This document shows positions 6,283-61,426 of a DNA stretch of 64,000 nt, one piece after another (the first letter of the stretch is position 1; each line of letters begins with the position of its first letter). The translations under genes and the position numbers were made by a program. The DNA lies in NCBI GenBank assembly GCA_016182085.1, contig JACOYB010000004.1, positions 211,923-275,922 on the forward strand, in the 5' to 3' direction. The notes beneath the pieces are model-generated. The model did not search any database. It saw only the letters and a list, made by a program, of their open reading frames with translations, and was not told where the DNA came from. Source of the stretch: Candidatus Magasanikiibacteriota bacterium. GTDB lineage: Bacteria > Patescibacteriota > Patescibacteriia > Magasanikbacterales > GWA2-37-8.

Positions 6283-6283
6283 A

Positions 6284-42546: not shown

Positions 42547-42616
42547 TGTCATTCCCGCCAAAGCGGGAATCCAGCCAAATCAACAATTGTCTGGATTCCC
42601 GTTGTTATGGGAATGA
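42547..42616. repeat. GTCATTCCCGC-family palindromic element, copy C
   Basis: GTCATTCCCGccaaagCGGGAATCCAG...CTGGATTCCCGttgttatGGGAATGAC. Followed at 42640-42672 by a right-arm fragment of the second family. Confidence 0.8.
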
Positions 42617-42738
42617 CAACAAAACGGATAGGGATCCTTCGCGCCGCTCAGGATGATTCGCCGTGGGCGAATCACTTATCCCCATTATTTTTTTACTTTG
42701 TTTGTGTTATACTACAGTTACTTTAACCGATTGTTCGT

Positions 42739-43329: not shown

Positions 43330-43355
43330 TATGTTAGTTGCCAGTTTGGCGTAAT

Positions 43356-46300
43356 ATGACAAAGTTTCAAAAATTCGGAATAAAATTCTTGTTAGCAGTA
43401 TTTACCTTTATCACAATCGGCGGATCTTTGTTTTATGCTCGTCCGGCTCAAGCCTTTCCCGTAGAAATTACCTGGGATCCGGGCTATGTTTGGAGTGTAT
43501 ATAAAAGTTTTATAAAAGACGCGGCCGTAAGTATCAGCATTCAAACTTTTTCTTATTTTTTACGCCGAGTCGCGTATGATTCGGCAGTTTGGCTGGCTTC
43601 CGGAGGAAAGGGGCAGGCATCTTTTGCGTATGGAAAAAACTTCGGTGATTATTTAAAAGACGTGGGTGATAGCGCCGCGGGTGTGGCCATTGAAGCTTTG
43701 GGCGAAGACTTTGGTTTTAATTTATGTAAGATTCCGGACCCAAAAATAGATTTGGCTATGCGTATCGGGCTTACGCATAAATTCATGGATTTAAAGCCGG
43801 ATTTAAATACCGGACCGGGAGTGCGCGAGCCAACTTGTACCTGGTCAACATTTCAAAACGACGTCTTAAGCGTGGATAATTGGCAAAGCCAGTTTGGCAG
43901 CTCCGATAGTATAGCTCGTAAATTTAACGTGGCTTTTTCCGTAGAACAAACAGATATTGGTATCTTGCGCGGCGCTACAGATAAGATCAATCAATATGTG
44001 GCAAAGAAAATTGAAGCCGAGACGCTGCAAAGACAAGAAGGGGATGGCTATTTGCCTAAAACCACGCTTATTTCCGGAGATATTCTTACTCCGGGCAAAA
44101 ATATTTCCGAAGAAGCCCAAGCGCAGAATCCTAACAAACAAACCGAGTCAGCTCAGGCTGGATTTTTATCTACTCTTGGCACGGGCGCGGTCGGCACGAT
44201 TGCCAGCGCCGGTTCGATATTTTTTAACACCTTAGCTTCACAAATGTTAAAAAATTGGCAGAATAAAGGCATGCTGCCGTTTGGTATTGGTTGTGTGGCT
44301 GGCGTGGGTACCGAATGTAAAGATTTGCAAGATACGTTAAGTGATTTACAGGGACAGGTTTCTCGCGGCGGCAGGCAGGCCGCGCAGGCTTTGTTTAACG
44401 ATCTCTTAACGCCGCCAAATATCGCGGTTGATCAGTATAATGTTTTAGTAAATTTTACCAATTGTCCTACCAGTCCCGGTCCGGATAATTGTGTGGCGGA
44501 TGCCGGTTTGGCCCAGGCCGCTCAAGAGGCAAATTCTGGCCGCACCGTTACGATCGCTGAAGCTTTAGAAAAAAATTGGCTTCATAGTGAGTGGAGGTTA
44601 GTTTCTCCGGATAGGGTAGCCGATAATGTAGACCCAAGCTGTCACCAGCGAGCATATTGTTATGCCAATATCGCCAAACTGCGTAAAGCGCGAATTTTGC
44701 CGCTTGGTTTTGAAATCGCAGCCTTAAACAGCAACCCGGATCAGCCATGGACGCTCAAACAGGTTGTAGACGGATTTAACGATTGTAATTTTATTAGAGA
44801 TGTAAATGGTAATGTGGTGGGAGTTGAAAACGATCCGGTCAATAAACCGTTCTGTAGATTGATTGATCCAAATTGGGTCTTGAAAGCGCCGCCGTCAAAG
44901 TGTAATTTCCTGGCTTATGGAACCAGTCCGTATTTTTCCGGTACGCCAAATCGTATTCAGGAGTGTGTAAATATGAGTACCTGTGTGGCCTATGATAAGG
45001 ATGGAAATTGCGCCACGCAAGGATATTGCACCCGAGAAAAAAATGTTTGGAAAATAGACGCGGCTAAATGTGATTCGCAAAATCGCACCTGCCGTACATT
45101 CCAGGATAGTACCGGCAAGACCGTAAGCTATCTGTACAGAACCTTGGATACCGGTTTTTGTAATCAAGATACCGTAGGTTGCGCCGAGTATAGTTTAAAG
45201 CAAAATACTGCCGGCAATTGGATTGGATACGCGGAAAATGATCTGGGCTCTTTAGGAGAAAATTCTTCCGTTTACTTTAATAATAAAGTTTCCACCAACT
45301 GTTCATCTAATTCAGACGGATGCTCTTCTTTCCAGGTGGCCAACAGTTCAGAAAAATTATATCTCAAAAAAGCGCCATATTACTCGCAGTGTTATGATAC
45401 CGATCAAACTACCGCAGTTATAGATTGGCCGCGAACCGCCAGCGATTTAAACAGGCTCCCAAATAAACCAGCCTGTAACAATTATTCTCAGGCTTGTATT
45501 GAGAGTGAAGTAAACTGTAATTGGTACGCGCCAAGCAGTTACACTGGCGATGCTATTCCGGGTAAGTTTACGCCAGCGTCGGTAAACGAAGGTCAGATAG
45601 TTTGGAATGATCAGTGTGATGCCAGGTGCGTAGGGTATGCCGCATACAGGGAAATGCCAAGCAATTATTCCAACGGTCAACCTGTTTCTTACGTTATTCC
45701 TTCATCCGGCAATTCCTGTAGCGCCGCAGATGAGGGCTGTGCCAGCTTTACAAACCTCGGCACAACCGAAGGCGGTTTGGAAAAAGTTGAGCACTATTCT
45801 TATTTGCGACCTTGTATTTTGCCCGACACCACTAAACAAAAGACATTCTATACATACGAAGGATCGGCTGTGGGCGGTTTCCAACTGAAGAGTTTTATTT
45901 TAGAAAAAGATACGGATGGCAGTCCTAAATATTTTTATCGCACTGCCGATGATTTGGCTACGTATGCGGCTACTTGCAGTCAAAACCTCTATCAACAAGG
46001 TTTAGCCAGTCCGGATTGCCGCCAATTTAATGATGATCAAGGGGCTGTATATTACAAATTATTGTCAAAGACTATCGCGGTTGCCAGTAACTGTACGCCA
46101 TTTAGATTAAATGATACCGAACTACACGATGTTGCGTTAAATGAAGTCAATTGTTTGGCGCAAAGAGGAAAATGGGATGCAGCTGCCGGAAGTTGTCAGG
46201 TATGTTTCCAAAACGGAGAATACAGAGACGGCGAGTGTTTCTATTATGGCCTGCCCGGAAATACGCCTAATACGGCCGGTACCAGCAAACCATGCGCCGC

Positions 46301-49300
46301 GGCGGCAAATACCTGCCGTGCTTATAAAGGAAACACCGGCAACAATGTCCGTAATATTTTTACCAATAATTTTGAACAATCGGTCGCGTCCGATGCTTTA
46401 GCCGGCTGGGGACCATCTTCGGATATCGCGCAATCACTTGAATCAACCCGGTCCGGAGAACATTCCTTGTCATATAATGGCACAGGCGCAGTATACAAGG
46501 ATATAGTATTAACTCCAGGTGAAAGTTATGATCTTACGTTCTGGGCCAAAGGAGCGGTGGGAGAAACAGTTACAGTTACTTTAGAAAATAATCAAGTTTC
46601 TAATTTAGGCACAATCAGTGTCGGCGATGCTTGGCAAAATTATCACCTCGGTCCAGTAGAATTAACCGGAAATGTTTCCAGTACCAAATTGCAATTTGCA
46701 GTTAACGGCCGGTTGTTCCTGGATAATGTTCACCTCAAAGAAGTTACCGATTTTATCTATCTTGTTAAAAATTCCCTTAGTGTTGATCCGGTTTGTGATA
46801 GCAATCTAAACGATAATTTACCGGGCGAAGCCTTGGGTTGTTCGCAGTATCAGACCCCGGATAACAGGCCAATTTATTTAACCGGTTTTACTTCGCTGTG
46901 TCGTGAAAAAGCAATCGGTTGTACGGCAGTATATGATACGCGCAATACGCCGGATGAAGTCGGCCCACGAGCGTATAATGTTTGGCTATCCGGGCCGGAA
47001 GGTCAAAGTACCAGCCGAAATATTGTTGGCACGGAATATAGATGCCAGGTTGCGCTTGGTCAAAAAGGTTGTTATGTACATGTAACCGGCGCAAATTTAA
47101 GCTCTATAGTTGCCGGCGGAGGCGCGATAGTTACTTCAACTATATACGTGCAGCCAGATTCGCCAACTACCACGCCTCTATATTTAGTAGCTAGCCGTGA
47201 AGCGACCTGTAGTCCGGTTGATTTAGGCTGTACGAAAGCCGGAAAACTAGTACAGACTCCAACCGGCCCAACGTATACCGAGGTAACAGTTAAAAAAGAT
47301 CCAAGCAGCTTTAATACCACGCTTTGTCAGCAGGAAGCGGTCGGTTGTAACGCATACTCTTCAAGCGATGGGGCGCTGTACTTTAAAGATCCGCAGTATT
47401 TAGGTCAAAAAGTTTGCGCTTACAGAGATAACGTAACTAAAAACGGTGTTAGATATAACGGTTGGTTCTGGAAAGGCGTAGGCAAGTGTGGCGCCGGAAA
47501 CGCCAGCGATCCATTCTGCACCAAAGACAGCGATTGCGCGTCCGGAGTTACCTGTAATCAAAAAGATGAACAGCCATGCTATCCAAATTATTTGCAATCC
47601 GGAAATAACTATGGCCTGTGGTCTTATGGCGTAAGCAGTTCATATAATAATTTTGTCGGTGAATGTCCGGCTACCCAAAATGGCTGTACGGAATTTATAG
47701 ATCGCAATGAAAATAATAAGACCTACTATCTTATCAATGATGATAGATTAAAGACACAGCAAACCGAATGTAATGGACAGATCAGTGAAAAAAACGGCTG
47801 TATTCTGCTTGATAGAACTGATTCACCAAACAAATTATGGAACACGGCCGCTTCCTATGCTGTCAGCGCGGGCCAAAATAATAATTTGGTGGCGCCAGTG
47901 GCTGGAACAGGCACAGTGACAAATGATGCCAATGTTATTTTGAAAGTTAGTAGAGATAGAGAATGTGGAGAATGGCTCCAATGCCGCTCTTCGCATCGTG
48001 TCTTCGACACGCAATCGGGCAGCTACAAAGAAGTTTGTGACGCCATCGGCCGCTGTAATAAATCTTCGGATTCATACAGCAACGCTGACTTCATCAATTG
48101 CTCCAATTGGCTTGATAATAATCACGAACTCAGCAATCAGATTTTAACTGATGACGCGTACCGCAATCGCAATACCACTTGGAAAGGTCAGGACTTTAGC
48201 GGTTACAGTATTTTAAATACGTTCCCGATTGAAGAATTGTCAGAAGTAAATGTGGGCAACGCTACGGCGGCCGATTGGCGTTTGGCCAAGACGCTCGCTT
48301 GCGGCGGAGGTCCTAACTGCAGATCTGCCACCGACCCTAATAGTCCATCTTGCGGATTAACCAGTGTTGGGTTGCCATGCGGTCGCAATAATGCCGGTGT
48401 TTGTTTGGGTTCGGTAAATCCAGTTTGTGTCCAGGATTTAGACAGTCCGGTTGTTGGTGTTCCTCGTCAATCCATAGCGCCAAGTTGTCGCGCTTATCCG
48501 GAAGAAACTTCGCCATTCCCAAATAGCCAAGCTATCAGTGATTCGCTGGCATTTAATTCGGTAAATACCTGTAACGAAACATCTGGATTTAGCACCGATC
48601 CGGGTAAATATAACAGCTGTGAATGTAATTACACCAAAGTTACGTATGGAGACGCAGTCACCAAATATTGGAATTTCAAAAATCCGAACAATGAGGGTAT
48701 CTTGGATACCAATAATCAAAATATACAAGGCGTGGTAAGTGGAATTTGTGTTGGCGGAGATAGTGCCGACCGGGCTTGTGATTCAGATAGTGATTGTACC
48801 GGTGGCAGCTGTCAAAAATTAAAGAAACAATCCCGCCTTATCGGCTGGCAAGGCTATTGTATTGAATATGATTATTCCAGACCGCTCAATGCCGAACAAA
48901 ATAGTTTTGCTTGTTTAACTTGGTTCCCGAAAGATAATATTACTGGCGCGTTTGATATAAACAATCAGCATGTGGAGGCAGGGTTCCAGGCGACCGAAAC
49001 AAACGGTAAATATTACTGCTTGGAAGCAAAAGGTTATCAGGAAACCAATAGCAATCCAGCTGTAAATGGTAGCGGCGCGCTTACATATAACAGATTTTTG
49101 GGTGGTGGAAATATTTCTAAACCGGGTTCTAGTGATGATCCAGCTGATCCAGATAGAGCTAAGAGAGTTGTGGTTGCTGACCCAGCCAAGCCAATTTATC
49201 GGGATGAAATTGATTATATATTAGTATCTCCCGTAGGCGGTGGCGGTAGTTGGTTCCCAAATACTTCACAATCCTTCTATATTAGAAATGGTCTTATTAC

Positions 49301-50960
49301 TAAATATCAAGGAGCTTTATGGAATGTGCTTGAAGAACCGGATGGCCAACCTATCCAAGGAGCTCAACGATTATTTGGTGAAGCCATCAGTTTATCACCC
49401 GGACAGTATGTTTGGTCTGATGGGCGTGATAGGAACGCATGGTATATGCGTCATGATGATGGTCAAGGTGACGGGAACGACGACTATCAATTTATTGGCC
49501 CAAGTTCTGAGGTAATGGGGCAGTATGCTGATCTGCTAAGATCGGATTGTGCCGGTCCGATAGATGTACCGCAAAATTGTTGGACAAACAATACCGGTCC
49601 TAATTGCAGGGATCGTTATCAACGTGATTGTATAGTCGGTGGTGCCGACAATAGTGACGACGGCTGTTCTGTAAAAGTCGTATTTGATCCGAATGGTCGT
49701 TTAAATAGAATAAATTTAGTTTGTTTAACCGGTGATTCCCGACATGAAGAAGGTAGAAACTTCAACTTCTATGTTGGTTTGCGCGAACCTTGCGCCAACA
49801 TTGCTCAAACCGAAACAAATTCGTATACATCCGTTGGTTGGACAGACAGGTTGTGGCGTCAAAGTACATTTGCAATCCCAACATTAAATTATCGTAATTC
49901 ACTTATCAGTTCTCCGTATGGTAGTTTGGCTATGCCAAGTTCACTTGTGTCGGATAAACTGATTAATATATTTACCCACTATAATGCTGACACATTTGAT
50001 CCGCCGCCAGCCATAGCCGGCGCTCCATATTCTTGCGCAGGCACTTGTTTGCAAACTAACCCAACCGCGCAGGAAGGTTTGTCTGGCACGGCCAGCCAAA
50101 GAACCTCGGCGCAAGGACGGGATAGCCTGGCACAAATTTTTGCCAAAATTGATAATGTTTGGAATTGGGGCTTTAGTACTGCCAATTCAGCCTGGTCGTA
50201 TCAAGCAAATACAAGTCTTCCATATAACTTTACTGAAACTTTAACTTCAGCCGTAAATACGCCGCAAGTGCATACCTTGGGAGCCTGCAGACCCGGAGGA
50301 AAATGTTTGGAAGGTAATGTTGCCGGTATAAGTATAAACGATAGAGCCAGCGGTGATCTTGTGTTTAATAGCAATGTTGGTGTTGTTAATGCCAAATTCT
50401 TTGGCTTCGCCAACAAAGATCAAATGCCAATCAGAAAAATTAAATTGGATTGGGGAGACGGCAATGTTGTTTCTCTAGACGGTTATTTCCGTAATCAGCG
50501 CGGTACGGTAAATGGAACTTGTGGAACAGGAGGCAAATGTTTGGTCGGTTCTACCGATACCGGTAAATCATGTACATCAAATAGTGATTGTACAAACATA
50601 GATAATTGTTTTGCCGAAAGCCAAGCGCCAAACTTTGGACAAATAGTCGGCAAGACTTGCGACTCTGCCTATTTCCGATTTGATCATGTCTATCAGTGTT
50701 CTCGCGAAAGCAGTAATTGGACAAATAGTTGTCCAAACGCGCAAGCCCAGAGTTTGTATGGCGGTTGTTGTGTCTTCCAGCCAAAAGTTCAGCTCAAGGA
50801 TAATTGGGGATGGTGCAATGGGGTTTGTGGGGATGCGGGAAGTCCAGGTGGAACAGGTTGTTACGATGCAAATGTAGGCACAGGAATAAAGGAATGTGAA
50901 ACTTTGCCATCTGCATATACACCTTCTTCTGCCAGAGTAATTGTTGCACCTGCTGATTAA
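43356..50960 (+). CDS. giant (about 2535 aa) secreted Cys/Asn/Gly/Thr-rich surface protein
   Basis: Single uninterrupted ORF. The track starts at TTG 43338; ATG 43356 gives signal peptide MTKFQKFGIKFLLAVFTFITIGGSLFYARPAQA. Roughly 150 or more cysteines, many as CxxC and C-x(n)-C pairs. No catalytic motifs recognised. Confidence 0.8.
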   Translation: MTKFQKFGIKFLLAVFTFITIGGSLFYARPAQAFPVEITWDPGYVWSVYKSFIKDAAVSISIQTFSYFLRRVAYDSAVWLASGGKGQASFAYGKNFGDYLKDVGDSAAGVAIEALGEDFGFNLCKIPDPKIDLAMRIGLTHKFMDLKPDLNTGPGVREPTCTWSTFQNDVLSVDNWQSQFGSSDSIARKFNVAFSVEQTDIGILRGATDKINQYVAKKIEAETLQRQEGDGYLPKTTLISGDILTPGKNISEEAQAQNPNKQTESAQAGFLSTLGTGAVGTIASAGSIFFNTLASQMLKNWQNKGMLPFGIGCVAGVGTECKDLQDTLSDLQGQVSRGGRQAAQALFNDLLTPPNIAVDQYNVLVNFTNCPTSPGPDNCVADAGLAQAAQEANSGRTVTIAEALEKNWLHSEWRLVSPDRVADNVDPSCHQRAYCYANIAKLRKARILPLGFEIAALNSNPDQPWTLKQVVDGFNDCNFIRDVNGNVVGVENDPVNKPFCRLIDPNWVLKAPPSKCNFLAYGTSPYFSGTPNRIQECVNMSTCVAYDKDGNCATQGYCTREKNVWKIDAAKCDSQNRTCRTFQDSTGKTVSYLYRTLDTGFCNQDTVGCAEYSLKQNTAGNWIGYAENDLGSLGENSSVYFNNKVSTNCSSNSDGCSSFQVANSSEKLYLKKAPYYSQCYDTDQTTAVIDWPRTASDLNRLPNKPACNNYSQACIESEVNCNWYAPSSYTGDAIPGKFTPASVNEGQIVWNDQCDARCVGYAAYREMPSNYSNGQPVSYVIPSSGNSCSAADEGCASFTNLGTTEGGLEKVEHYSYLRPCILPDTTKQKTFYTYEGSAVGGFQLKSFILEKDTDGSPKYFYRTADDLATYAATCSQNLYQQGLASPDCRQFNDDQGAVYYKLLSKTIAVASNCTPFRLNDTELHDVALNEVNCLAQRGKWDAAAGSCQVCFQNGEYRDGECFYYGLPGNTPNTAGTSKPCAAAANTCRAYKGNTGNNVRNIFTNNFEQSVASDALAGWGPSSDIAQSLESTRSGEHSLSYNGTGAVYKDIVLTPGESYDLTFWAKGAVGETVTVTLENNQVSNLGTISVGDAWQNYHLGPVELTGNVSSTKLQFAVNGRLFLDNVHLKEVTDFIYLVKNSLSVDPVCDSNLNDNLPGEALGCSQYQTPDNRPIYLTGFTSLCREKAIGCTAVYDTRNTPDEVGPRAYNVWLSGPEGQSTSRNIVGTEYRCQVALGQKGCYVHVTGANLSSIVAGGGAIVTSTIYVQPDSPTTTPLYLVASREATCSPVDLGCTKAGKLVQTPTGPTYTEVTVKKDPSSFNTTLCQQEAVGCNAYSSSDGALYFKDPQYLGQKVCAYRDNVTKNGVRYNGWFWKGVGKCGAGNASDPFCTKDSDCASGVTCNQKDEQPCYPNYLQSGNNYGLWSYGVSSSYNNFVGECPATQNGCTEFIDRNENNKTYYLINDDRLKTQQTECNGQISEKNGCILLDRTDSPNKLWNTAASYAVSAGQNNNLVAPVAGTGTVTNDANVILKVSRDRECGEWLQCRSSHRVFDTQSGSYKEVCDAIGRCNKSSDSYSNADFINCSNWLDNNHELSNQILTDDAYRNRNTTWKGQDFSGYSILNTFPIEELSEVNVGNATAADWRLAKTLACGGGPNCRSATDPNSPSCGLTSVGLPCGRNNAGVCLGSVNPVCVQDLDSPVVGVPRQSIAPSCRAYPEETSPFPNSQAISDSLAFNSVNTCNETSGFSTDPGKYNSCECNYTKVTYGDAVTKYWNFKNPNNEGILDTNNQNIQGVVSGICVGGDSADRACDSDSDCTGGSCQKLKKQSRLIGWQGYCIEYDYSRPLNAEQNSFACLTWFPKDNITGAFDINNQHVEAGFQATETNGKYYCLEAKGYQETNSNPAVNGSGALTYNRFLGGGNISKPGSSDDPADPDRAKRVVVADPAKPIYRDEIDYILVSPVGGGGSWFPNTSQSFYIRNGLITKYQGALWNVLEEPDGQPIQGAQRLFGEAISLSPGQYVWSDGRDRNAWYMRHDDGQGDGNDDYQFIGPSSEVMGQYADLLRSDCAGPIDVPQNCWTNNTGPNCRDRYQRDCIVGGADNSDDGCSVKVVFDPNGRLNRINLVCLTGDSRHEEGRNFNFYVGLREPCANIAQTETNSYTSVGWTDRLWRQSTFAIPTLNYRNSLISSPYGSLAMPSSLVSDKLINIFTHYNADTFDPPPAIAGAPYSCAGTCLQTNPTAQEGLSGTASQRTSAQGRDSLAQIFAKIDNVWNWGFSTANSAWSYQANTSLPYNFTETLTSAVNTPQVHTLGACRPGGKCLEGNVAGISINDRASGDLVFNSNVGVVNAKFFGFANKDQMPIRKIKLDWGDGNVVSLDGYFRNQRGTVNGTCGTGGKCLVGSTDTGKSCTSNSDCTNIDNCFAESQAPNFGQIVGKTCDSAYFRFDHVYQCSRESSNWTNSCPNAQAQSLYGGCCVFQPKVQLKDNWGWCNGVCGDAGSPGGTGCYDANVGTGIKECETLPSAYTPSSARVIVAPAD

Positions 50961-51039
50961 TCAACTCATTTTAAATAGCGGAAATAAAAAATCACTGACT
51001 AGTTCAGTGATTTTTTATTCTACTTAAAAGACGAAATTT

Positions 51040-51080
51040 TTCTTCTGTTAAGCTGATGGTTGACCGCCTGCGCTTGCCGT
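51040..51080. terminator. GC-rich hairpin GTTGACCGCCT...AGGCGGTCAAC
   Basis: Perfect 11-bp stem immediately 3' of the minus-strand lipoprotein gene. Confidence 0.5.
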
Positions 51081-51101
51081 TGGCGAGCGAGAGGCGGTCA
51101 A

Positions 51102-51551
51102 CTAGTTTGATGGTGGTGAGAAGTTGCCGCGCAACTGCTCCGTATTGAGCCTGATGTGGACGATAGTGCCGTTGGTCAAGTCGATGTTCAGCGTGCCCTG
51201 GCCTTCCTGCAGAGGAAGATTGAACACGAAGCCGCCGTCTGAACCGTTCAGCAGGTTGCAGTCGAGCTGGCAGCTATCCGTCTGGTTGGGCGGCATGTCG
51301 GCCACTCGGCAGTCGAACTGAACCGGTGCGCTGACCGAGATCGTAATGCCAGACAGCTGGATGGCCTGCGCGCAGATCTCGGTTGGCATCGAGCCATCGG
51401 TCTGCACCATGTTGCCGGCGTCCACCATGACATCGTCGTCGCCATCGTCGGGCGGGCTGCCGCAGGCCGTGGCGCCGATGCCGACTGCCAGGAACAGAAT
51501 CGACGTGATGACGTTGAACCAGAACAGGGTCAGTTTGCTTTCCGGGTGCAT
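51102..51551 (-). CDS. GC-rich lipoprotein of unknown function
   Basis: Signal peptide with lipobox (LAVGIGATAC). RBS GAGGAG. About 58 % GC, versus roughly 35 % in the flanking DNA. Confidence 0.55.
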   Translation of the reverse strand: MHPESKLTLFWFNVITSILFLAVGIGATACGSPPDDGDDDVMVDAGNMVQTDGSMPTEICAQAIQLSGITISVSAPVQFDCRVADMPPNQTDSCQLDCNLLNGSDGGFVFNLPLQEGQGTLNIDLTNGTIVHIRLNTEQLRGNFSPPSN

Positions 51552-52125
51552 GATACGCTCCTCTGTCGCTTATAGGCGACTCAGTGAGAATTGTGTCGCC
51601 TTAAGCGACGTTGGTAAAGCGGTGAGTTACCTAGGTCATTAACTGCCTCGTTTTTACGGAGCAATTAGCGACCTCGGTAATTTCGCTTTACTTACTATTT
51701 TCCACCATCAATTTATTGGCTAAATTTGGAGTTTCCTCTAAACTTAGCACTTTTGTAAAGAGCGGGTTATCTTGCGATAACGACAAATTATAGCATATTT
51801 TGGGGATTTTGTCAACCCCGCTTAGCGGGGTCAACCCTATATATACTATATGGCACATTACCATTCTTCGTTAGATAATACCAATTTTTATCAAACAAAG
51901 AATAGGCACTTGCTATGTATGCGCCTACCGGAAAAATCATTCGTTTCTTATTTCTTAAATCATTATACACCCGATTGCCGCTATTGTTACATAGGGACTT
52001 ATGCACAGGTCTTCAGGGTTCGAAAAAGTAAATTATTTTTATCCACAAGTGATTTTTTTGACCATGTTTTTAATTGTTGACTGAGCCAAAATATGATACA
52101 ATTACTTTACCATAATTGATACAGA

Positions 52126-55100: not shown

Positions 55101-55359
55101 TAGTCAGAGAGCGGAACAGTTGGCGGAAGTTTTTAATGGTAAAAATGACTTATTTATATCACAGATGCAGAATGGGTTTTTTGATTCTTTAAATTCAGCT
55201 ATTATTGACAGAAATAATCCGGCAAATGTTGCTGAATATACAAATTTATTAAATAAGATTAAGGCAGTATTAAAAGACCCTCAGGCTCAGGCTAGGTTTT
55301 TACAGAGGTCTGAAGGGCTGTTAACAAATCTGGGATTACCAGCAGGACAATGGCCTTAA
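52126..55359 (+). CDS. VirB6/TrbL-like polytopic membrane protein with long coiled-coil C-terminal extension
   Basis: Seven or more TM segments in the first 350 aa. The remaining roughly 700 aa are charged and coiled-coil. The gene lies in a T4SS-like neighbourhood. Confidence 0.45.
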   Translation: MLARLKNSLLLIFSRSWNFLRPRQKLGLVSFVIISSLIIAVWFIFTPVSYAQSLAGAGEWLLELFSDLLFALAGLFIKLTFFSLKFIIEVAGYNGFIDSPAVIVGWVMVRDITNMFFVVVLLIISFGTILGLEQYEYKKLLVKLLMAAVIVNFSRLICGLIIDIAQVVMVTFVNGIAATASGNLVNMFQVDQIFKLAEGQTTKVGSTFEIFLAAVAAIVFATMMLVTMLTFLVLLLARMAMLWVLIVLSPFAFVLNVLPQTEKYASQWWEQFGGHVVAGPIIAFFLWLSFVTVGAGTAFDEIKKHNALPQSQTAASPEEEQTGITQIMSWAKMANFAIAIAMLLAGAKMAQQLGVVGGGLMGKAGDLGKKVAMYASGLQAARWTASNVLKPAAKYGLMKMPLGGEFWQRRGRSIKAWASYKTTKKGWLGLPSTESRLIAAGERIDKAYGKETQDIGKQSQEVQDLVAARDAALQSEDYHKADELGKKLKKAGFDVGEAEEGPREGLTELKKAYGGGTRAWARIGLALWTTSEFDKEYTNDKEARAKYAKEQMEHIVSTSKTPIGKEKTEAEQDLERAKETGGRIKKRKLADVAEKRSKIDKKIEADLAAGKSVEDVKNKYGERRYWDYTRLKNADKSAVQAEEITHAMAEDEKLRAAEARHAERGSVKGHLREEEAHTAKAKSKQIEEGLQAEKELEELKEIKKLLEGKGASQQAVINFTKAQTANIKEDFDISKEEAEVEQRAESFRQMGDDLRANQVLAEMQSKAAKREGDRVSAMSWEDKTFALQALPVKIQQLEQDIAAAYVGGNAEEATRLKEIKNKTVKRTMALQTSLKSEGKEAAELADSGALKAIGWNEVIDDANRIRAELSKILGKVVAVGDEAAAAEDVYRAFGGIEKAQGAMTLYSNANKTAGLKGAGSLFGLVGDRRNASGQLERFFGQYDQATNTVNAGRVKVGDGFYPTKIAEVDHRKWITANGYGKINVDNKIVGFDSQRAEQLAEVFNGKNDLFISQMQNGFFDSLNSAIIDRNNPANVAEYTNLLNKIKAVLKDPQAQARFLQRSEGLLTNLGLPAGQWP

Positions 55360-55365
55360 AAAAAT

Positions 55366-56355
55366 ATGTTTTTTGATCAAAAAAATTTAACCGACGAAGA
55401 GATTAAGGTGAAAGAATTGGAATTTCAACGCCTGTCTTCGGATATAGGTGCGGCAACTAAATTGCGGCAAGAATTAAAAAATTATTTTTCCTTTGCATCC
55501 ACAGAAGAAAAAGAGGCTCTTAGGTGGACTTATTGGAGGTGGTACGTAGAGTTAACATGGAAGAATTTTAATTCCCTTTCTAAAGATGGGGTGGTAGACG
55601 CTTTTTCAAAACAGGTGCCAATGGCTATAGTAAATAGCTATAACATTCTTGACAGTCTGATGTGGTATCTAACCTTTCATCTTTACGAAGAGGCAGAAAT
55701 GCAAAGTTTTTATCTTAAAGTTAAACCTGCGTTTATTAATTCAGAAGCAGTTTTGGGAAAATGGCAAGGTAAAAGTATCCTTGTTAAGGAAATTGTATCA
55801 GAATATTATTTACTCCAGCAGCGCCGCGCTTCTTCCATGGAAGAAGCCGAATTTCTTACAAAATTAAAACAAATAATGTTTCCTAAAGAGTTCGAGTCCT
55901 ATATTTTGGTGGACAAGGATGTTGGAGTAGATAATTTTTTAGCGATAGTCGAATTATTCCAGGAGATTGACCAAGAAAAAATTTGGTTTTTGGTAGAAAT
56001 GTTTTCAGATCCAGAAAAATACCAAGAAAATAATTTTAAATCTAAAGAAAAAAAACAAACTGAAGAAAATAACGAAGAAAAAGAAGGTCTAATAAAAGAA
56101 GAAATCACAAATCAGGCAAAAAATGTCCAACCGCTGGTACAATTTCCCGCGAAAGAGGTTTCCAAAATACCGACCCCCCAGCAAATAAAATCCCAGATAG
56201 AACAAGAATTTAAAAAAGACGAAAAGGGCAATTTTGTCGATATCGACGGCGTCATGCAAAAACTGGCTGAATTATCGGAAAAATATAACGATTCGGCGAT
56301 TGCAGACATGTTGTATTTTGATGAGCAGTCGGGCGGTTTTAAGTGGAATATATAA
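55366..56355 (+). CDS. hypothetical protein in the T4SS-like cluster
   Basis: 329-aa ORF. Confidence 0.45.
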   Translation: MFFDQKNLTDEEIKVKELEFQRLSSDIGAATKLRQELKNYFSFASTEEKEALRWTYWRWYVELTWKNFNSLSKDGVVDAFSKQVPMAIVNSYNILDSLMWYLTFHLYEEAEMQSFYLKVKPAFINSEAVLGKWQGKSILVKEIVSEYYLLQQRRASSMEEAEFLTKLKQIMFPKEFESYILVDKDVGVDNFLAIVELFQEIDQEKIWFLVEMFSDPEKYQENNFKSKEKKQTEENNEEKEGLIKEEITNQAKNVQPLVQFPAKEVSKIPTPQQIKSQIEQEFKKDEKGNFVDIDGVMQKLAELSEKYNDSAIADMLYFDEQSGGFKWNI

Positions 56356-57578
56356 AAAATAGTATGGCCGAACCAATGATACAAATTAAAAAACCTGATG
56401 GAACTTTTACAAAAGTTCCGCTTAGTGAATTTAAAAAAATGCAGGCAAAACCTGCGCCAAGCCCTGTGGCTGCGCTTGCTCCTGCTCCGGTAGCAGAAGT
56501 AAAAGAGGTAAAAAAAGAAATGGAAGAAAAAGTTGAGCTGCCGCAAATTAAGCCGGAATCAGAAATTGAAAAACCAAAAGCCGAAACGCCTCATGCTCAT
56601 CGTGCTCATGTTGCTCATACGGTACTCAAACATCCGGTAGAAATTAAAAAACATACACCCGCGCATCACGCAACTCACGCTCATAAAAAATTAACTCGTG
56701 AAGATGCCAAATCTCCGTTGGAGGAAAAGATGCCGGTAAAAACTGATGCGCCTATGGTGAGCGCTAAACGTGAAAATCAAGTGGAAGAAGTAATAAGGAA
56801 AATTGGTTTTGGCGTGGCTCCGGATTTGCAAGGCAGATTGAAAAGTCTGATTCTGGCCAGGTTAAAAGATATAAAAAGCGAAGATGAGATACGAGATATT
56901 CTTTTGCGTCCGGTAAAAAATAGCGGCTTGGGATTATCCGAAGGACAGGTAGAAAAAATTATTAAATTGTGTCGAGAAGTATTGGGAGCTGATGCCGCAA
57001 AAGCTGCAAGTGATAATGCGCAGACGCCAATTTTGAAAGGCAAATCCGGCGGCATGGCGCTTATGGTTGAACCGCCTGAATTACCAATGGTGATACCCGT
57101 AAAAAGCAGCTTTTCTGTGAAAAATTCCACTCCGCCGGCACCGCTCAACAAATTCGCAACCGATACCATTGTTTCAAGGATAATAAAGGAAAACATGGCT
57201 GACGAGCCGATGTTTAAAATTAGCAATAAGCCCGCAGTCAGACAAGTAGTGCAAGATATTTCTGTTCCGGATATGGAAATGGGGCCGGTGGAAGAGTTTA
57301 AATCAATAACTATCACTGAATTTAGAAGATTATCCAGCAATCCGGAAGAAGCGGCCAAACGACTGTATCAAAAAATGTCCAATTTGCAAGAAGAATCATT
57401 CGTGTGGTATTTGGATGCGGTCGCGGCATATCATAACTCGCCGCTATATTTGGAATATATGTCGGCGGTAAGCCAGTCGCTGGCGGAAAGAAAATCACTG
57501 GCGAATGTACTTGCGGCAAAAAATGGTATAAAATTAAATGAGGTGATGGCAATTATTGAAATGGAAAAAACATTATAG
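56343..57578 (+). CDS. hypothetical His/Ala/Pro-rich protein in the T4SS-like cluster
   Basis: 411-aa ORF. Short overlap with the neighbouring ORFs suggests translational coupling. Confidence 0.45.
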   Translation: MEYIKNSMAEPMIQIKKPDGTFTKVPLSEFKKMQAKPAPSPVAALAPAPVAEVKEVKKEMEEKVELPQIKPESEIEKPKAETPHAHRAHVAHTVLKHPVEIKKHTPAHHATHAHKKLTREDAKSPLEEKMPVKTDAPMVSAKRENQVEEVIRKIGFGVAPDLQGRLKSLILARLKDIKSEDEIRDILLRPVKNSGLGLSEGQVEKIIKLCREVLGADAAKAASDNAQTPILKGKSGGMALMVEPPELPMVIPVKSSFSVKNSTPPAPLNKFATDTIVSRIIKENMADEPMFKISNKPAVRQVVQDISVPDMEMGPVEEFKSITITEFRRLSSNPEEAAKRLYQKMSNLQEESFVWYLDAVAAYHNSPLYLEYMSAVSQSLAERKSLANVLAAKNGIKLNEVMAIIEMEKTL

Positions 57579-58035
57579 CTGTCATCCTGACAATAAACGT
57601 ATGGATCAATTCGTAGTGCCACAATTTATAGAAGTAGAAGATAAGATTTTTGGCCCAATTACGACCAGGCAGTTTATTATTTTGCTTGTCACGGCCTTGA
57701 TTTTATTTATCACTTTCAAATTGGCGGATACGGTCCTATTTATTTTTTTGGCTGCAGTTATTGGCGGATCCTCACTGGTTATCGCGTTTGTAAAAATAAA
57801 CGGCCAGCCGTTTCATTATTTTTTACTAAATCTAGTTCAAACCGTTCGCCGCCCCAGTCGTAGGATTTGGTACAAAGATTTTACCAAGGCCGAACTGACG
57901 GAATCAATTAAATCGGGGAAAATAGAGGTTGTAGAAGCTGTAAAAGAAGTGCCAAAAATGTCATATAGCCGTATTCGCGATCTGTCATTAATTGTTAATA
58001 CGGGTGGGTACTATAGTGGAAGCGAGCGAGAATAA
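57556..58035 (+). CDS. PrgI / VirB3-like small membrane protein
   Basis: VPQFIEVEDKIFGPITTRQFIILLVTALILF resembles the PrgI-family N-terminus, followed by two TM helices. Confidence 0.5.
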   Translation: MKWKKHYSCHPDNKRMDQFVVPQFIEVEDKIFGPITTRQFIILLVTALILFITFKLADTVLFIFLAAVIGGSSLVIAFVKINGQPFHYFLLNLVQTVRRPSRRIWYKDFTKAELTESIKSGKIEVVEAVKEVPKMSYSRIRDLSLIVNTGGYYSGSERE

Positions 58036-58113
58036 TACATTATGTATAATGTATTATCGAGCGAACGACACTATATGCGGCCTTTAGGCCCATATAAGCC
58101 GGAGTAGCACACT

Positions 58114-58186
58114 GTCATTCCCGCCCGGGAGCGGGAATCCAGGCAATTCGACCGGATACTAGATTCCCGCTTGCGGCGGGAATGAC
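58114..58186. repeat. GTCATTCCCGC-family palindromic element, copy D
   Basis: GTCATTCCCGCCCGGGAGCGGGAATCCAG...CTAGATTCCCGCTTGCGGCGGGAATGAC. Confidence 0.8.
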
Positions 58187-58209
58187 AACAAAAACGTAAA
58201 ATAAAAAGT

Positions 58210-58887
58210 ATGAAAGAAAAGCCAAAGAAAAAGAAAATTAAAGTTCCCAGCGCTCAAAGCCATCTCCCGTTCGCGGAGGTGAAGTTTGATACCGTAATCA
58301 TGAAAGATGGAACATTGCGGGCGGTGCTTATGGTGTCCAGTATAAATTTTGCTTTAAAGAACGAAGATGAGCAAAACGCGATTATTTCTTCGTATGTTTC
58401 TTTTCTAAATGGCATTGATTTTCCGCTGCAGATTGTGGTGCAATCTCGGCAGCTATACATTAAACCATATTTGGAAAAATTGTTAAAAAAAGAACGTGAA
58501 CAAACTAATGAATTATTGCGCGTACAGATAGCCGATTACAGATCATTCGTATCCGAACTCGTAAGCCTGGGAAATATTATGAGCAAACAATTCTTTGTAG
58601 TTGTTTCGTACGATCCGCTTTCCAACAGAAAAAAAGGTTTTTGGTCTAGAATGAAAGAAGTCGTAAATCCGGCAGTGACTATAAAATTAAAAGATGAACG
58701 GTTTCAGCTGCGCAAACACGATCTTGATATGAGGGTGCGCCAAATAGAATCAGGATTAACCAGCATGAATTTAGAAGTGGTCAGGCTGGACACGCAATCA
58801 TTAATAGAACTATTCTATTCCACCTATAATCCCGATATCGCGTTTAGCGAGCATTTGCCGCCAGTGGGTGAGCTGCGAGTAGAATAG
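58210..58887 (+). CDS. VirB4/CagE/TrbE-type conjugal ATPase, N-terminal domain encoded as a separate ORF
   Basis: FAEVKFDTVIMKDGTLRAVLMVSSINFALKNEDEQNAI matches the VirB4 N-terminal domain pattern. Confidence 0.5.
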   Translation: MKEKPKKKKIKVPSAQSHLPFAEVKFDTVIMKDGTLRAVLMVSSINFALKNEDEQNAIISSYVSFLNGIDFPLQIVVQSRQLYIKPYLEKLLKKEREQTNELLRVQIADYRSFVSELVSLGNIMSKQFFVVVSYDPLSNRKKGFWSRMKEVVNPAVTIKLKDERFQLRKHDLDMRVRQIESGLTSMNLEVVRLDTQSLIELFYSTYNPDIAFSEHLPPVGELRVE

Positions 58888-58921
58888 GATTTAGTACTTA
58901 GAATTTAGGATTTAATATTGT

Positions 58922-60799
58922 ATGGCTTTTAAACCAAAATTTGCTACCGGATCATTTTCCAAACAGAAAGGGCCTTTGACTAGCAAGGAAGAAGATATCA
59001 GTAAAAAATCCGGTGAGGAACTTATAACCCTGGAAGAAGAAAGGGTATATCGTGAAGGCACGGTTTCCATTAAGGATTTGCTTGCGCCTTCGGCTTTTAA
59101 TGTTGAATCAAATTTTGTAAAGTTGGGCGATATATTTTGCCGGACGATTTTTGTTGTAACGTACCCGAGGTATATTTCCATCGGTTGGAGTTCGCCGGTA
59201 TTAAATTTATCCATCACGATGGATGTGGGAATGTTTTTCTATCCCGTGAAATCCGCTATTATTTTAAAACAGTTAAAAAATAAAGTCGGCGCCTTGGAAG
59301 CGCAGCTTAACGCGGATTCGGAAAAAGGCGCGCCGCGCGACCCGGTGCGTGAAACGGCTTTGCGTGATATTGAACAGTTGCGTGATGATCTAACTCAAGG
59401 TATTGAACACTTTTTTCAATTCTCATTTTACGTAACCCTTTACGCCAAAAGCAAAGAAGAGCTTGATCAAACTTCGGAAGACGTGGAAAATATTTTTGGC
59501 TCCAAACTTATTACCAGCCGTAAAGTTTTATATCAGGCTGAGCAGGGTTTTAATTCCACCTTGCCGCTGGCCAATGACGAACTGATGATTTCATTTAACT
59601 TAAACTCTTCGCCGATTGCCGCGTCTTTTCCATTTACTTCCGCCGAACTTACTTCCGATGATGGTATTTTGTACGGCGTCAATCGCCACAATAACAGTCT
59701 TATTTTGTTTGATAGATTTTCTTTACAGAATGCCAACATGGCTGTGTTTGCGACCTCCGGTGCCGGTAAAAGTTACGCGATCAAATTGGAAATTTTACGC
59801 AGTATGATGATGGGGGTTGATGTTATCGTAATTGACCCGGAAATGGAATACAAACATTTGGCCGATGCCGTGGGCGGAACCTATATAAACATTTCTCTTT
59901 CTTCCGAAGCCAAAGTAAATCCGTTTGATTTGCCCAGACCAACCGGCGGAGAAGATTTTTCCACCGAAGATATTATTCGCGGCGCGGTGATAACCGTAAA
60001 AGGTTTGCTTCGTATCATGCTTGGCAATCTCACCACGGAGCAGGATTCTATTATAGACAGGGCGCTTATTGAAACATACGCTAAAAAAGATATTACGCCC
60101 GAAGCAGACCTCAGTGTTGTACAGGCGCCGATAGTGCAAGATTTGCAAGAAATTTTGGAAGGCATGGAAGGCTCCGGAGATTTGGTATTAAGACTTAAAA
60201 AATATACTGAAGGTACGTTTAGCGGGCTCTTCAACGCCCCAACCAATGTGGACATGAAAAATCAACTCGTGGTATTTAGCGTGCGTGATTTAGAAGACGA
60301 GCTTCGTCCGATGGCTATATACGCGATCGTTAACTATATTTGGAATGTTGTACGTTCGGAACGAAAGAAGAGAATTTTGGTAATTGATGAGGCGTGGTGG
60401 CTGATGCAGCACGAAGATAGCGCACGGTTTATTTTTGCCCTGGTTAAACGCGCCCGCAAGTATTATTTGGGGGTTACAACCATTACCCAGGATGTAAATG
60501 ACTTTTTAAAATCACAGTACGGTCAGGCTATAGTTACAAACTCCGCTTTGCAGCTCTTGCTCCGTCAGTCACCGGCGGCCATTGATTTGGTGCAAAAAGT
60601 TTTTATCCTTACCGAAGGCGAAAAATATTTGCTCTTAGAGAGTGGAGTAGGGGAGGGAATATTTTTCGCCGGTAATAAGCATGCGGCTATAAAGGTGGTA
60701 GCATCGTATACCGAAGATCAACTCGTAACCACCAACCCGGAGCAGCTCTTAGAAATAGAAAGGTCTAAAAAAGAATTTGAAAAACAAACCGGACAATAA
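58922..60799 (+). CDS. VirB4/TraC-type ATPase, C-terminal ATPase domain
   Basis: Walker A FATSGAGKSYAIK and Walker B RILVIDEAWWLM. 625 aa. Confidence 0.7.
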   Translation: MAFKPKFATGSFSKQKGPLTSKEEDISKKSGEELITLEEERVYREGTVSIKDLLAPSAFNVESNFVKLGDIFCRTIFVVTYPRYISIGWSSPVLNLSITMDVGMFFYPVKSAIILKQLKNKVGALEAQLNADSEKGAPRDPVRETALRDIEQLRDDLTQGIEHFFQFSFYVTLYAKSKEELDQTSEDVENIFGSKLITSRKVLYQAEQGFNSTLPLANDELMISFNLNSSPIAASFPFTSAELTSDDGILYGVNRHNNSLILFDRFSLQNANMAVFATSGAGKSYAIKLEILRSMMMGVDVIVIDPEMEYKHLADAVGGTYINISLSSEAKVNPFDLPRPTGGEDFSTEDIIRGAVITVKGLLRIMLGNLTTEQDSIIDRALIETYAKKDITPEADLSVVQAPIVQDLQEILEGMEGSGDLVLRLKKYTEGTFSGLFNAPTNVDMKNQLVVFSVRDLEDELRPMAIYAIVNYIWNVVRSERKKRILVIDEAWWLMQHEDSARFIFALVKRARKYYLGVTTITQDVNDFLKSQYGQAIVTNSALQLLLRQSPAAIDLVQKVFILTEGEKYLLLESGVGEGIFFAGNKHAAIKVVASYTEDQLVTTNPEQLLEIERSKKEFEKQTGQ

Positions 60800-60838
60800 G
60801 AATATAGAATTTAGAAATTAGAATTTAACACAAAACGT

Positions 60839-61426
60839 ATGTCACTTCGCGCTCGTATTTTCATTATTATCAGTGTTGTAATATTTTTGGTTTTAGCGAT
60901 AAGCATATTCTTAATCGTAAGAAACAAAAATAAAAAAACCGAAAATGCAAATCCGACAACTACCACTACCACCAGCACAAGTAACAATACTCAGTCGGGC
61001 AGTCAGGTCGTGGTAGATGGCCAGCTGCCAACCGGACTAACGGCCCGAACACCAACCTCGCTAGAGGTGGAAAAAAACAACGTAGAACAGCTCGCTAAAA
61101 TTTTTGTAGAGCGATACGGATCGTATTCTACGGATAATGAATTTCAAAATATTAAAGAATCAGAGTCTTTGGTTACAAAGTCGTTATGGACAAAAATCAG
61201 CGCTGGCATGAACGTAAAAAGTACCAGTCAAGGTTTTTTGGGGGTTACTACCAAGGTAGTTAGCGCTAGTATTACCGACTGGTCTGCGAGCAAAGCTACG
61301 GTGCAGCTGCGGCTCATGAGGGAAGAAAATAAAGATGGCACGGTTTCCAATCGCTATCAAAATGCAACTGTGGAGATGGTTAAACAAGGTAATGTATGGT
61401 TGGCAAACGCGCTCGCTTGGAACTAA
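60839..61426 (+). CDS. hypothetical membrane-anchored protein with poly-Thr linker
   Basis: N-terminal TM helix followed by TTTTTTSTSNNTQ. Confidence 0.45.
   Translation: MSLRARIFIIISVVIFLVLAISIFLIVRNKNKKTENANPTTTTTTSTSNNTQSGSQVVVDGQLPTGLTARTPTSLEVEKNNVEQLAKIFVERYGSYSTDNEFQNIKESESLVTKSLWTKISAGMNVKSTSQGFLGVTTKVVSASITDWSASKATVQLRLMREENKDGTVSNRYQNATVEMVKQGNVWLANALAWN

Follow-up and report, generated by a model that had tools for sequence, protein, structure and literature searches.

In Patescibacteria, also called the candidate phyla radiation (CPR), TrsD, remotely homologous to the N-terminus of VirB4, is the commonest type IV secretion system (T4SS) component beside virB4 (Quinonero-Coronel et al. 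2025, PMC12102498). PrgI/VirB3, VirB6 and VirB2-like pilins accompany TrsD, relaxases are absent, and the loci of class ABY1 include comF (PMC12102498). The same survey found that the lack of a VirB1-type hydrolase is common, and it found no PrgB-like adhesins near the T4SS genes (PMC12102498). In Southlakia epibionticum the T4SS is indispensable (Wang et al. 2023, PMC10633639; PMC12857230). Saccharibacteria as a group require the T4SS, pilins and several envelope proteins that bind polysaccharide in order to grow as epibionts (PMC10633639, PMC12857230). Large Cys-rich extracellular proteins were reported from Peregrinibacteria, and attachment was proposed as their role (Anantharaman et al. 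2016, PMC4736985). Here we describe a locus in a 64,000-nt stretch of contig JACOYB010000004.1 of a Candidatus Magasanikiibacteriota bacterium (the whole stretch is called the window), where a T4SS operon (52126..62061) lies next to a gene for a giant secreted Cys-rich protein (43356..50960; the giant). As the best explanation, which we hold with about even confidence, we propose two adjoining but separate units: the T4SS operon of a known type and an adhesin-like, glycan-binding surface-protein unit (42739..50960) made of the giant and a small partner.

The neighbourhood is a chromosomal segment of the Magasanikbacteria type with ~40% GC, and the genes around the locus are housekeeping genes (NusA, YidC, GroEL, RF1, Sua5, KsgA, IF-2, LeuRS and RNase Y). 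The nearest relatives of the locus are metagenome-assembled genomes (MAGs) of Magasanikbacteria, with identity to the window giant of 90% in CAZUFD01, 69% in MFRA01 (RIFOXYD1_FULL_40_23) and 68% in JAGOQR01.

We found that the operon is made of eight co-directional genes on the + strand, in the order extended VirB6-like protein, two unknown proteins, PrgI/VirB3, TrsD, VirB4, a protein with a single transmembrane (TM) helix and ComF. The genes overlap or are separated by short spacers, except for a gap of 174 nt between PrgI and TrsD, and a matching gene order was seen in more than 25 related loci. All the open reading frames (ORFs) listed in an earlier, preliminary description of the window do exist on the + strand. 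The features of the operon, along with a distant pilin gene, are as follows.

52126..55359, + strand: extended VirB6-like protein of 1,077 aa (hydropathy, composition, TrbL matches in some orthologues)
55366..56355, + strand: unknown protein of 329 aa (orthologues in 27 loci at 21-52% identity, operon position conserved)
56343..57578, + strand: unknown protein of 411 aa with a Lys/Pro/His-rich N-terminal half (orthologues in 33 loci, position conserved)
57556..58035, + strand: PrgI/VirB3-like membrane protein (Pfam PF12666 PrgI, E 2.4e-10, 41.3 bits against a cut-off of 27)
58113..58188, no strand assigned: palindromic repeat element in the PrgI-TrsD spacer (GTCATTCCCGC...GCGGGAATGAC; repeat families D2, D4, I12 and I13)
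58210..58887, + strand: TrsD-like protein of 225 aa, a homologue of the VirB4 N-terminal domain (NCBIfam TrsD/TraD match, VirB4 N-terminal alignments)
58922..60799, + strand: VirB4-family ATPase of 625 aa (NCBIfam conju_CD1110; Pfam P-loop_TraG, AAA_10 and DUF87)
60839..61426, + strand: single-TM protein of 195 aa (one TM helix, then a linker rich in Thr and Ser, then an ectodomain of ~120 aa that is conserved; alignment of 7 orthologues)
61396..62061, + strand: ComF family protein (TIGR00201, E 2.7e-29, and Pribosyltran; the start overlaps the preceding ORF by 31 nt)
11632..12165, + strand: VirB2-like T4SS pilin (Pfam T4SS_pilin, E 1e-9, 38.8 bits against a cut-off of 26.6), ~40 kb from the operon

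The T4SS identity follows from the VirB4 and PrgI matches above curated cut-offs, the TrsD match, the TrbL matches of orthologues, the shared gene order and the published description. The VirB4 ATPase matched conju_CD1110 with E 7e-107 and 358.5 bits (equivalog cut-off 325) and P-loop_TraG with E 4.6e-27 and 95 bits, while its translation shows a Walker A motif, GAGKS, and a Walker B motif, VIDEAW. Judged by sequence, the operon is a chromosomal Patescibacteria-type (Gram-positive, MPF_FATA-like) T4SS of an already described kind. The preliminary description had identified a T4SS-like neighbourhood and a possible VirB2-like pilin elsewhere in the window, and the profile searches bear out both.

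The VirB6-like protein has at least seven hydrophobic segments within aa 26-345, as seen by hydropathy, and a tail of 677 aa with 33% charged residues and a high Ala content, which the preliminary description had as a putative coiled coil of 700 aa. Its orthologues have total lengths of 875-1,788 aa; the tail varies in length and is often unalignable. The earlier VirB6-like label is favoured by the polytopic architecture and by 6 of the 43 orthologues, which have TrbL/VirB6 matches in Pfam (best E 5e-7). It does not extend to a family match of the window copy, which has no TrbL/VirB6 match in Pfam or NCBIfam and whose profile finds nothing in PDB. The position in the operon is conserved, and the orthologue in locus L002 has a weak TrbL annotation on record. 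The 1,077-aa protein fits the "extended VirB6" class named in a 2025 review of T4SSs (PMC12857230).

The VirB4 ATPase had been described earlier as encoded in two ORFs. Two ORFs are indeed present, and there is nothing peculiar in that: they form the known TrsD and VirB4 pair. The two are in different frames, with a 34-nt spacer between them, and they are separate genes in 30/30 related loci that reach that point. Since they are separate in all the 30 related loci examined, we consider the two ORFs to be the normal TrsD and VirB4 arrangement and not a disruption. A frameshifted VirB4 was rejected on the same grounds (different frames, the spacer, the two-gene arrangement kept in relatives) and by published precedent. 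The TrsD-like product matched NCBIfam TrsD/TraD with E 2e-8 and 34 bits, below the curated cut-off of 200. It also aligned to VirB4_plasma (residues 94-234) and to CD1110 (residues 21-94), and the copy in locus L001, called as a shorter protein of 185 aa, has PF26593 (TraC-like) on record. An ORF of its own, ~225-239 aa long, encodes the TrsD-like protein in 25 loci, those of the 30 in which it is complete; in the remaining five it is cut by a contig edge.

As for the other members of the operon, neither of the two unknown proteins (55366..56355 and 56343..57578) has a family match in Pfam, NCBIfam or PHROGs. The single-TM protein has no match in Pfam, NCBIfam or in a PDB profile search; from its topology, and without support from its sequence, we would guess that it is a candidate VirB8-like (VirB8/PrgL-type) component. 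ComF is present as described earlier, at a place just outside the range ending at 61426 that had been given for the neighbourhood; the ORF with which that range closes, 60839..61426, is the single-TM protein and not ComF. By ORF coordinates, the PrgI-TrsD spacer is 174 nt in the window, 91 nt in locus L013 and 27 nt in locus L006. Close relatives, in which this spacer is far shorter, seem to lack the copy of the palindromic repeat that sits here.

The locus shares with the published Patescibacteria T4SSs a VirB4 of the kind known from Gram-positive conjugation, a TrsD gene of its own immediately upstream, PrgI/VirB3, a candidate VirB6-like polytopic protein and a VirB2-like pilin in the genome. 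It also shares the chromosomal location, the presence of comF in the locus (as in ABY1) and the absence of a relaxase or coupling protein from the cluster. A domain scan that covered the T4SS cluster and a set of other large ORFs in the window gave no relaxase, no VirD4-type coupling protein and no VirB1-type hydrolase. The differences from the published systems are that the pilin is 40 kb away and not in the cluster, that the cluster has no VirB1-type hydrolase (no lysozyme, transglycosylase or peptidase domain was found in any ORF of 52126..62061), that VirB6 carries the 677-aa charged tail, and that two lineage-specific proteins and the single-TM protein are present. The subclass of pGO1/pSK41 (TrsD-TrsE) has, like the window, the VirB4 N-terminal-like domain as a separate small TrsD upstream of VirB4. 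Unlike pGO1/pSK41, the window cluster showed no relaxase, coupling protein or oriT context, and its TrsD stays at 34 bits where the cut-off is 200. As far as the T4SS is concerned, the locus offers no novelty, being a model case of a recently described Patescibacteria system.

The other unit of the locus is dominated by the giant, whose features are listed below; mean identities are given as fractions, and the structure models were built from 30-33 sequences each.

43356..50960, + strand: giant secreted Cys-rich protein of 2,534 aa if started at the ATG, 43356 (the reading frame is open upstream to a TTG, 43338)
43356..43454, + strand: Sec-type signal peptide (hydrophobic core GIKFLLAVFTFITIGGSLF, then ARPAQA/FP)
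aa 41-320: helical, Cys-poor region with highly conserved motifs (mean identity 0.44, pLDDT low)
aa 360-530: alpha/beta domain (mean identity 0.53 for aa 321-540, pLDDT 73-89)
aa 540-1900: beta-rich Cys modules, including a carbohydrate-binding module (CBM) (mean identity 0.43-0.54; pLDDT mixed, <50 in much of 540-720 and 70-90 from ~720)
46350..46772, + strand: CBM4/9-16-22-like beta-jelly-roll, aa ~1005-1145 (Pfam CBM_4_9 and Foldseek)
49038..50177, + strand: hypervariable, indel-rich region, aa ~1901-2280 (mean identity 0.24 to 54 homologues, pLDDT mixed)
50178..50957, + strand: conserved Cys-rich C-terminal domain, aa 2281-2540 (motifs VDWGDG and KVQVKDNWGWCNG, terminal IIVAP; identity 0.40, pLDDT 80-94)

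The top hydropathy segment of the giant is at aa 14-32 (numbered from the upstream TTG), and the conserved A-x-A that follows the hydrophobic core, A37 and A39, is invariant or nearly so across the family. From hydropathy and this motif, rather than from a dedicated predictor, we read a probable Sec signal peptide and its cleavage site. Hydropathy and the translation gave no second TM-grade segment, no LPXTG motif and no C-terminal anchor (the C-terminus is ...SSARVIVAPAD). Of the 106 Cys residues (4.2%), most show little or no variation across 55 sequences at 31-91% identity. In aa 320-1900, 23 of the 77 spacings from one Cys to the next are 6-8 residues long, a strong enrichment that 0/2000 random placements reached. 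The motif C-x5-[GT]-C-x2-[FY] recurs ~10 times. The invariant residues of the giant are overwhelmingly Cys, Gly, Pro and aromatics. The integrity of the ORF is supported by an orthologue of the same length with 90% identity and by the collinear homologues.

Within this scaffold, Pfam CBM_4_9 matched aa 1007-1088 with 26.4 bits, compared to a cut-off of 25.9. The model of the jelly-roll has pLDDT 80-90, and Foldseek matched it to 8xmz, 2zew, 4xup and 2xom (CBM16/22/4/61) with target-normalised TM-scores of 0.6-0.72, root mean square deviation (rmsd) of 3.4-4.4 and 15-24% identity over ~140-155 columns. The family model and the jelly-roll fold of the predicted structure together indicate a CBM_4_9-type module, which would probably bind glycan. 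The preliminary description had presented the giant as a 2535-aa Cys-rich protein with no recognisable catalytic domain, made up of Cys pairs at regular spacing and of N/G/T-rich segments. The Cys richness was seen correctly, and the lack of a recognisable catalytic domain agrees with our searches; the protein has 2,534 aa and does carry a recognisable module.

Modules of the CAZy families CBM4/16/22 mostly occur attached to glycoside hydrolases. This, along with the descriptions of the PDB matches, raises the question of an extracellular enzyme, for example one degrading polysaccharide or cell wall, with a catalytic domain too divergent to be recognised and the CBM as its targeting module. 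The conserved alpha/beta domain (aa 360-530) would suit this idea, being confidently modelled and without a known relative, and so would a putative glycosyl hydrolase (DUF4015) that is a conserved upstream neighbour. On the other hand, no catalytic family matched the giant in Pfam, NCBIfam or PHROGs, no PDB match was found outside the CBM by sequence or fold, and the composition of the invariant residues leaves no obvious catalytic set. We regard an enzyme as very unlikely. In the comparison with CBM families 4/9, 16, 22 and 61, the CBM of the giant differs in being embedded midway along a Cys-rich scaffold of 2,534 aa, with no recognisable glycoside hydrolase attached.

Outside the CBM, no relative of the giant was found in Pfam, NCBIfam, PHROGs or BFVD, nor in PDB, which was searched by sequence, by profile and by fold. 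The single-sequence PDB search gave nothing. In PDB profile searches, the helical N-terminal domain had as its best match the coronavirus spike HR1 (heptad repeat 1; E 0.07), which we took as a matter of coiled-coil composition, the alpha/beta domain had no matches, and the C-terminal domain had no matches either, the best S-layer chain reaching E 3.1. A comparison of the C-terminal 1,200 aa by fold with PDB and BFVD gave nothing significant (best E 0.016, generic immunoglobulin (Ig)-like sandwiches). Folds of the MSCRAMM type appeared among the fold matches of the giant at non-significant E-values only, and no adhesin family matched it in Pfam or NCBIfam. Structure prediction had been proposed for the giant in search of beta-helix or Ig-like repeats. 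It did show beta-rich modules and the CBM jelly-roll; the Ig-like sandwiches among the fold matches were generic and non-significant, and BLAST self-comparison gave no internal repeats.

Two other candidates were dropped. Matches of the N-terminal model to iota-toxin Ib/CDTb amount to a local likeness to a CBM-like receptor-binding domain (rmsd 20-26 A, target-normalised TM-score ~0.2). A PKD domain, considered for the motifs VDWGDG and VQVKDNWGW, had no PKD match in 37 family members.

We observed that sequence variation along the giant is concentrated in aa 1901-2280, where the gap fraction is 0.23 and where most of the insertion hot spots fall; the mean identity of 0.24 there compares with 0.43-0.54 over aa 41-1900. 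In addition, two homologues carry insertions of a six-bladed NHL/SBBP beta-propeller, P0089 at aa ~1480-1710 and P0094 at aa ~1047-1205 and ~1778-1938. The insertion points correspond to residues ~1048 and ~1414-1439 of the window giant. The scaffold therefore accepts extra binding modules, and the two fixed insertion points suggest hot spots for exchangeable binding modules. The idea of a secreted Cys-rich candidate adhesin, put forward earlier, is compatible with the A-x-A signal peptide, the invariant Cys residues, the CBM, the hypervariable region and the NHL insertions.

An exhaustive phmmer search with aa 7-1000 as the query among 1.84 billion representatives (clusters at 50% identity) produced 1,366 matches at E<=1e-3, of which 1,028 were at E<=1e-30. 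The family is discrete, since there is almost no distant tail. Among the best 150 matches, ~130 are 2,400-3,300 aa long, and the shorter ones have 672-2,000 aa. In the species-level genome collection, at least 536 loci have the giant. For the comparisons below we kept 76 distinct loci. Their informative titles are all Magasanikbacteria or unclassified Patescibacteria, while about half of the titles are uninformative or evidently wrong. The homologues are collinear over the full length at 31-90% identity, and all their source names are "hypothetical protein".

Many MAGs with this Patescibacteria-specific locus (L008-L013, L015-L017 and others) are titled "uncultured Gammaproteobacteria bacterium" (third party annotation (TPA) assemblies), and one is titled "Candidatus Udaeobacter sp."; the taxonomy of such records looks mislabelled. 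The "uncultured Gammaproteobacteria" title of CAZUFD01 was taken as a mislabel because the named relatives of the locus are all Magasanikbacteria or Patescibacteria.

The conservation of the giant also bears on a different role, that of a structural envelope protein, in which an S-layer-like or wall-associated lattice or fibre would use the CBM to bind the polysaccharide of its own wall. The giant is single-copy and collinear, the conservation of its core matches that of housekeeping neighbours, and its family, which is sharply bounded, occurs throughout the lineage; the dense disulfides, together with the Ca-binding motifs of the partner protein described below, would suit a rigid extracellular lattice. 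Nevertheless, no S-layer homology (SLH) or other S-layer family matched the giant in Pfam or NCBIfam, no S-layer fold matched, and the best S-layer chain in PDB is the one at E 3.1. The hypervariable region and the swapped-in NHL propellers look more like ligand recognition. We find a structural role rather improbable.

In comparison with the Cys-rich proteins of Peregrinibacteria, the giant shares a large size (>1,000 aa), a signal peptide, a high Cys content, the lack of annotation and a proposed role in attachment. It is single-copy, collinear and highly conserved, whereas the Peregrinibacteria proteins are encoded in multi-gene, strain-variable clusters. The Cys content is 4.2% for the giant compared to 7.2 +/- 2.4% for the Peregrinibacteria proteins, which belong to a different lineage and are likened to the giant by description only. 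Large Cys-rich exported proteins of CPR bacteria were noted already in general terms (PMC4736985), and we rate the giant as a further case of known kinds. To our knowledge of the literature searched, the giant family itself, its partner and its position beside the T4SS have no earlier description. What the giant adds is a large, discrete and fully unannotated family with a fixed two-gene organisation, one module of a glycan-binding type and a delimited hypervariable region. No host or mechanism of attachment is known for the uncultured Magasanikbacteria; therefore, the family is a concrete candidate for host recognition or an envelope structure.

The second gene of the fixed organisation lies directly upstream of the giant.

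42739..43329, + strand: small partner protein of 196 aa (N-terminal TM helix, two Ca-binding motifs of the thrombospondin type 3 (TSP3)-like kind, a conserved C-x5-C pair, helical C-terminus)

The TSP3-like Ca-binding motifs of the partner, DTDKDGLNDFDE and DTDSDGINDKTE, are conserved in 34 orthologues; the match to Pfam TSP3_bac (E 4e-4) is below the cut-off. To follow gene order around the giant, window proteins were compared by tblastn with the 76 loci, with flanks of up to 10 kb. The giants fall into two sub-clades, split at 36% identity to the window giant. The TSP3 partner is directly upstream of the giant in 73/74 loci and KsgA is upstream in 66/69 loci, in both sub-clades, so that a giant of the <36% sub-clade keeps its TSP3 partner and the upstream KsgA. 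Upstream of this KsgA-TSP3-giant block, again in both sub-clades, lies a conserved gene for a TM-anchored DUF4015 protein (39259-40407; putative glycosyl hydrolase, E 9e-106), for which a link to surface glycan metabolism is possible.

On the downstream side, the giant and the T4SS operon are separated by the following features.

50983..51019, + strand: hairpin flanked by an A-run and a T-run, terminator-like in both directions, 25 nt past the stop codon of the giant
51102..51551, - strand: small lipoprotein-like ORF of 149 aa (GC 53-68%; motif ...GATAC/GSPPDDGDDD...)

The hairpin was detected by RNA folding (-19.3 kcal/mol, z = -6.15, with 0/200 shuffles equally stable) and was missed by a simple terminator scan. 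The lipoprotein-like ORF, which has no Pfam or PHROG match, forms a high-GC islet (51080-51560) that separates the giant from the T4SS operon in a genome of ~40% GC. Locus L013 has a diverged counterpart at the same place, with the same lipobox and PDDGDDD motif. A recent foreign insertion was therefore rejected as an explanation of the islet, L013 being the closest relative, and the ORF is taken as a fast-evolving resident gene. An AT-rich stretch of ~570 nt separates the ORF from the VirB6-like gene. Across the loci, the spacer between the giant and the T4SS varies from 0.2 to 9 kb and has unrelated genes inside. Given the hairpin, the opposite-strand gene and the AT-rich stretch, the giant is probably transcribed apart from the T4SS.

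The adjacency of the giant and the T4SS was then compared with that of housekeeping neighbours, taken as controls; downstream counts for VirB6-like and PrgI are restricted to loci with a flank of at least 9.5 kb. The counts for the two sub-clades are given below.

VirB6-like gene downstream of the giant: 25/25 at >=36% identity, 2/7 at <36%
PrgI downstream of the giant: 23/25 at >=36%, 2/7 at <36%
RF1 upstream of the giant (control): 40/41 at >=36%, 2/12 at <36%
GroEL upstream of the giant (control): 30/41 at >=36%, 2/12 at <36%
Sua5 upstream of the giant (control): 38/41 at >=36%, 11/12 at <36%

We observed that the giant-T4SS adjacency is lost in step with the adjacency of GroEL and RF1. Therefore, it looks like background gene order; its phylogenetic depth equals that of unrelated housekeeping neighbours, while the TSP3-giant pair goes deeper. 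A functional coupling of the giant and the T4SS is possible, and the synteny control gives it no positive support. The preliminary description had treated the two as one functional neighbourhood. This view finds no support, in view of the hairpin, the opposite-strand gene, the 0.2-9 kb spacer and the count of 2/7 in the divergent sub-clade. More generally, in highly syntenic genomes the adjacency of genes should be compared with background synteny before functional linkage is read from it.

The same data bear on the possibility that the giant and its TSP3 partner are a dedicated accessory of the T4SS, a lineage-specific host-contact or adhesin module of the sort that T4SSs of monoderms normally require, similar to PrgB in pCF10. 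Where the giant is at least 36% identical, the VirB6-like gene and PrgI do lie within 10 kb downstream at the frequencies given above. The published survey, having found no PrgB-like adhesin in Patescibacteria (PMC12102498), leaves such a place vacant, and Saccharibacteria need the T4SS along with several adhesins or polysaccharide-binding proteins for epibiotic growth (PMC10633639). Against such a dedicated accessory stand the terminator-like hairpin, the opposite-strand gene and the variable spacer with unrelated genes. The divergent clade loses the adjacency, yet the giant and its partner persist, and the loss runs parallel to that of GroEL and RF1. Furthermore, the giant family is confined to one lineage, while the T4SS type is phylum-wide. 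With PrgB, the aggregation substance of pCF10, the giant shares a proposed role only, that of a large surface protein near a monoderm T4SS serving cell contact. Unlike PrgB, it has no family assignment, nothing in PDB matches it significantly outside the CBM, its translation shows neither LPXTG nor a C-terminal anchor, and it probably lies in a separate transcription unit. A dedicated accessory is, in our opinion, an unlikely explanation.

If the two units are separate, as we prefer to think, the T4SS would serve, by analogy with Saccharibacteria, as an envelope-spanning machine for host interaction and not for conjugation. The giant would be exported via Sec, would fold into a long series of modules, mainly beta and locked by disulfides, and would be displayed on the cell surface. 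Because it has no anchor of its own after cleavage of the signal peptide, it would be retained most likely via the TM partner and/or the conserved helical N-terminal domain. The conserved scaffold (aa ~40-1900) would carry the glycan-binding jelly-roll of the CBM type, while the hypervariable distal region (aa 1900-2280) and the lineage-specific NHL propellers would supply variable binding specificity. The polysaccharide to which the giant attaches would most likely be that of a host, or possibly that of its own envelope.

Several observations weigh against this explanation. The giant has no relative other than the CBM in PDB or BFVD, which leaves room for a role as an unrecognised enzyme or in building a machine. 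The quality of the structure models is moderate, with pLDDT of 63 and 71, and the N-terminal 360 residues are of low confidence. The scaffold is as conserved as the housekeeping neighbour KsgA (42-74%), more than one would usually expect of an adhesin in contact with a host, and a structural role would agree with this as well. Finally, the adjacency to the T4SS is complete (25/25) over a wide range of identity (36-90%), so that a functional link stays unrefuted.

More speculatively, the TSP3 membrane protein and the CBM-bearing giant might be the missing host-contact module, for adhesion or docking, of the Magasanikbacteria T4SS, physically coupled to the extended VirB6 or to the pilus. We would give this little credence. 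If true, glycan recognition by the giant would position or gate the secretion or uptake machine on the host surface.

Other features of the window are described next. The presence of ComEC elsewhere in the window, suggested in the preliminary description, is confirmed by Competence and DUF4131 matches at 25274..26848. The gene seems to be split, with the metallo-beta-lactamase ORF at 28304-29173. Between the two parts are a methyltransferase gene and a ~1.1-kb zone of direct repeats (27210-28350, 78-88% identity) that duplicates the starts of small ORFs.

The palindromic repeat found in the PrgI-TrsD spacer belongs to a family, GTCATTCCCGC...GCGGGAATCCAG / CTGGATTCCCGC...GCGGGAATGAC, with copies at 19949-20024, 33494-33567, 42541-42624, 58113-58188 and 63552-63620, and related elements are at 42238-42270 and 63617-63649. 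Most of the copies are intergenic. One copy is in frame inside the LeuRS gene, where it adds "VVIPAKAGIQTIQSDAGFPIKSGMTT" between conserved LeuRS motifs, and a related element encodes a part of the KsgA C-terminus (CHSERSEESL). The repeat behaves like a mobile element similar to a Rickettsia palindromic element (RPE) or a miniature inverted-repeat transposable element (MITE).

LeuRS itself (19235-22765; 1,176 aa) has an unusual architecture. After the editing domain, and ahead of the C-terminal parts for catalysis and anticodon binding, it carries two insertions, a NUDIX domain (aa 405-522) and a serine-hydrolase/alpha-beta-hydrolase domain (aa 616-776).

The region 1720-6350 has several repeat families around an adenylosuccinate-lyase-like gene (2642..4081) with 51% GC. 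These include four copies of a 74-nt unit with AAAGTTTGCCAAGTGTCTCGATTAACCCTACGG, a pair of 106-nt repeats at 94% identity and hairpin-containing units of 49 nt.

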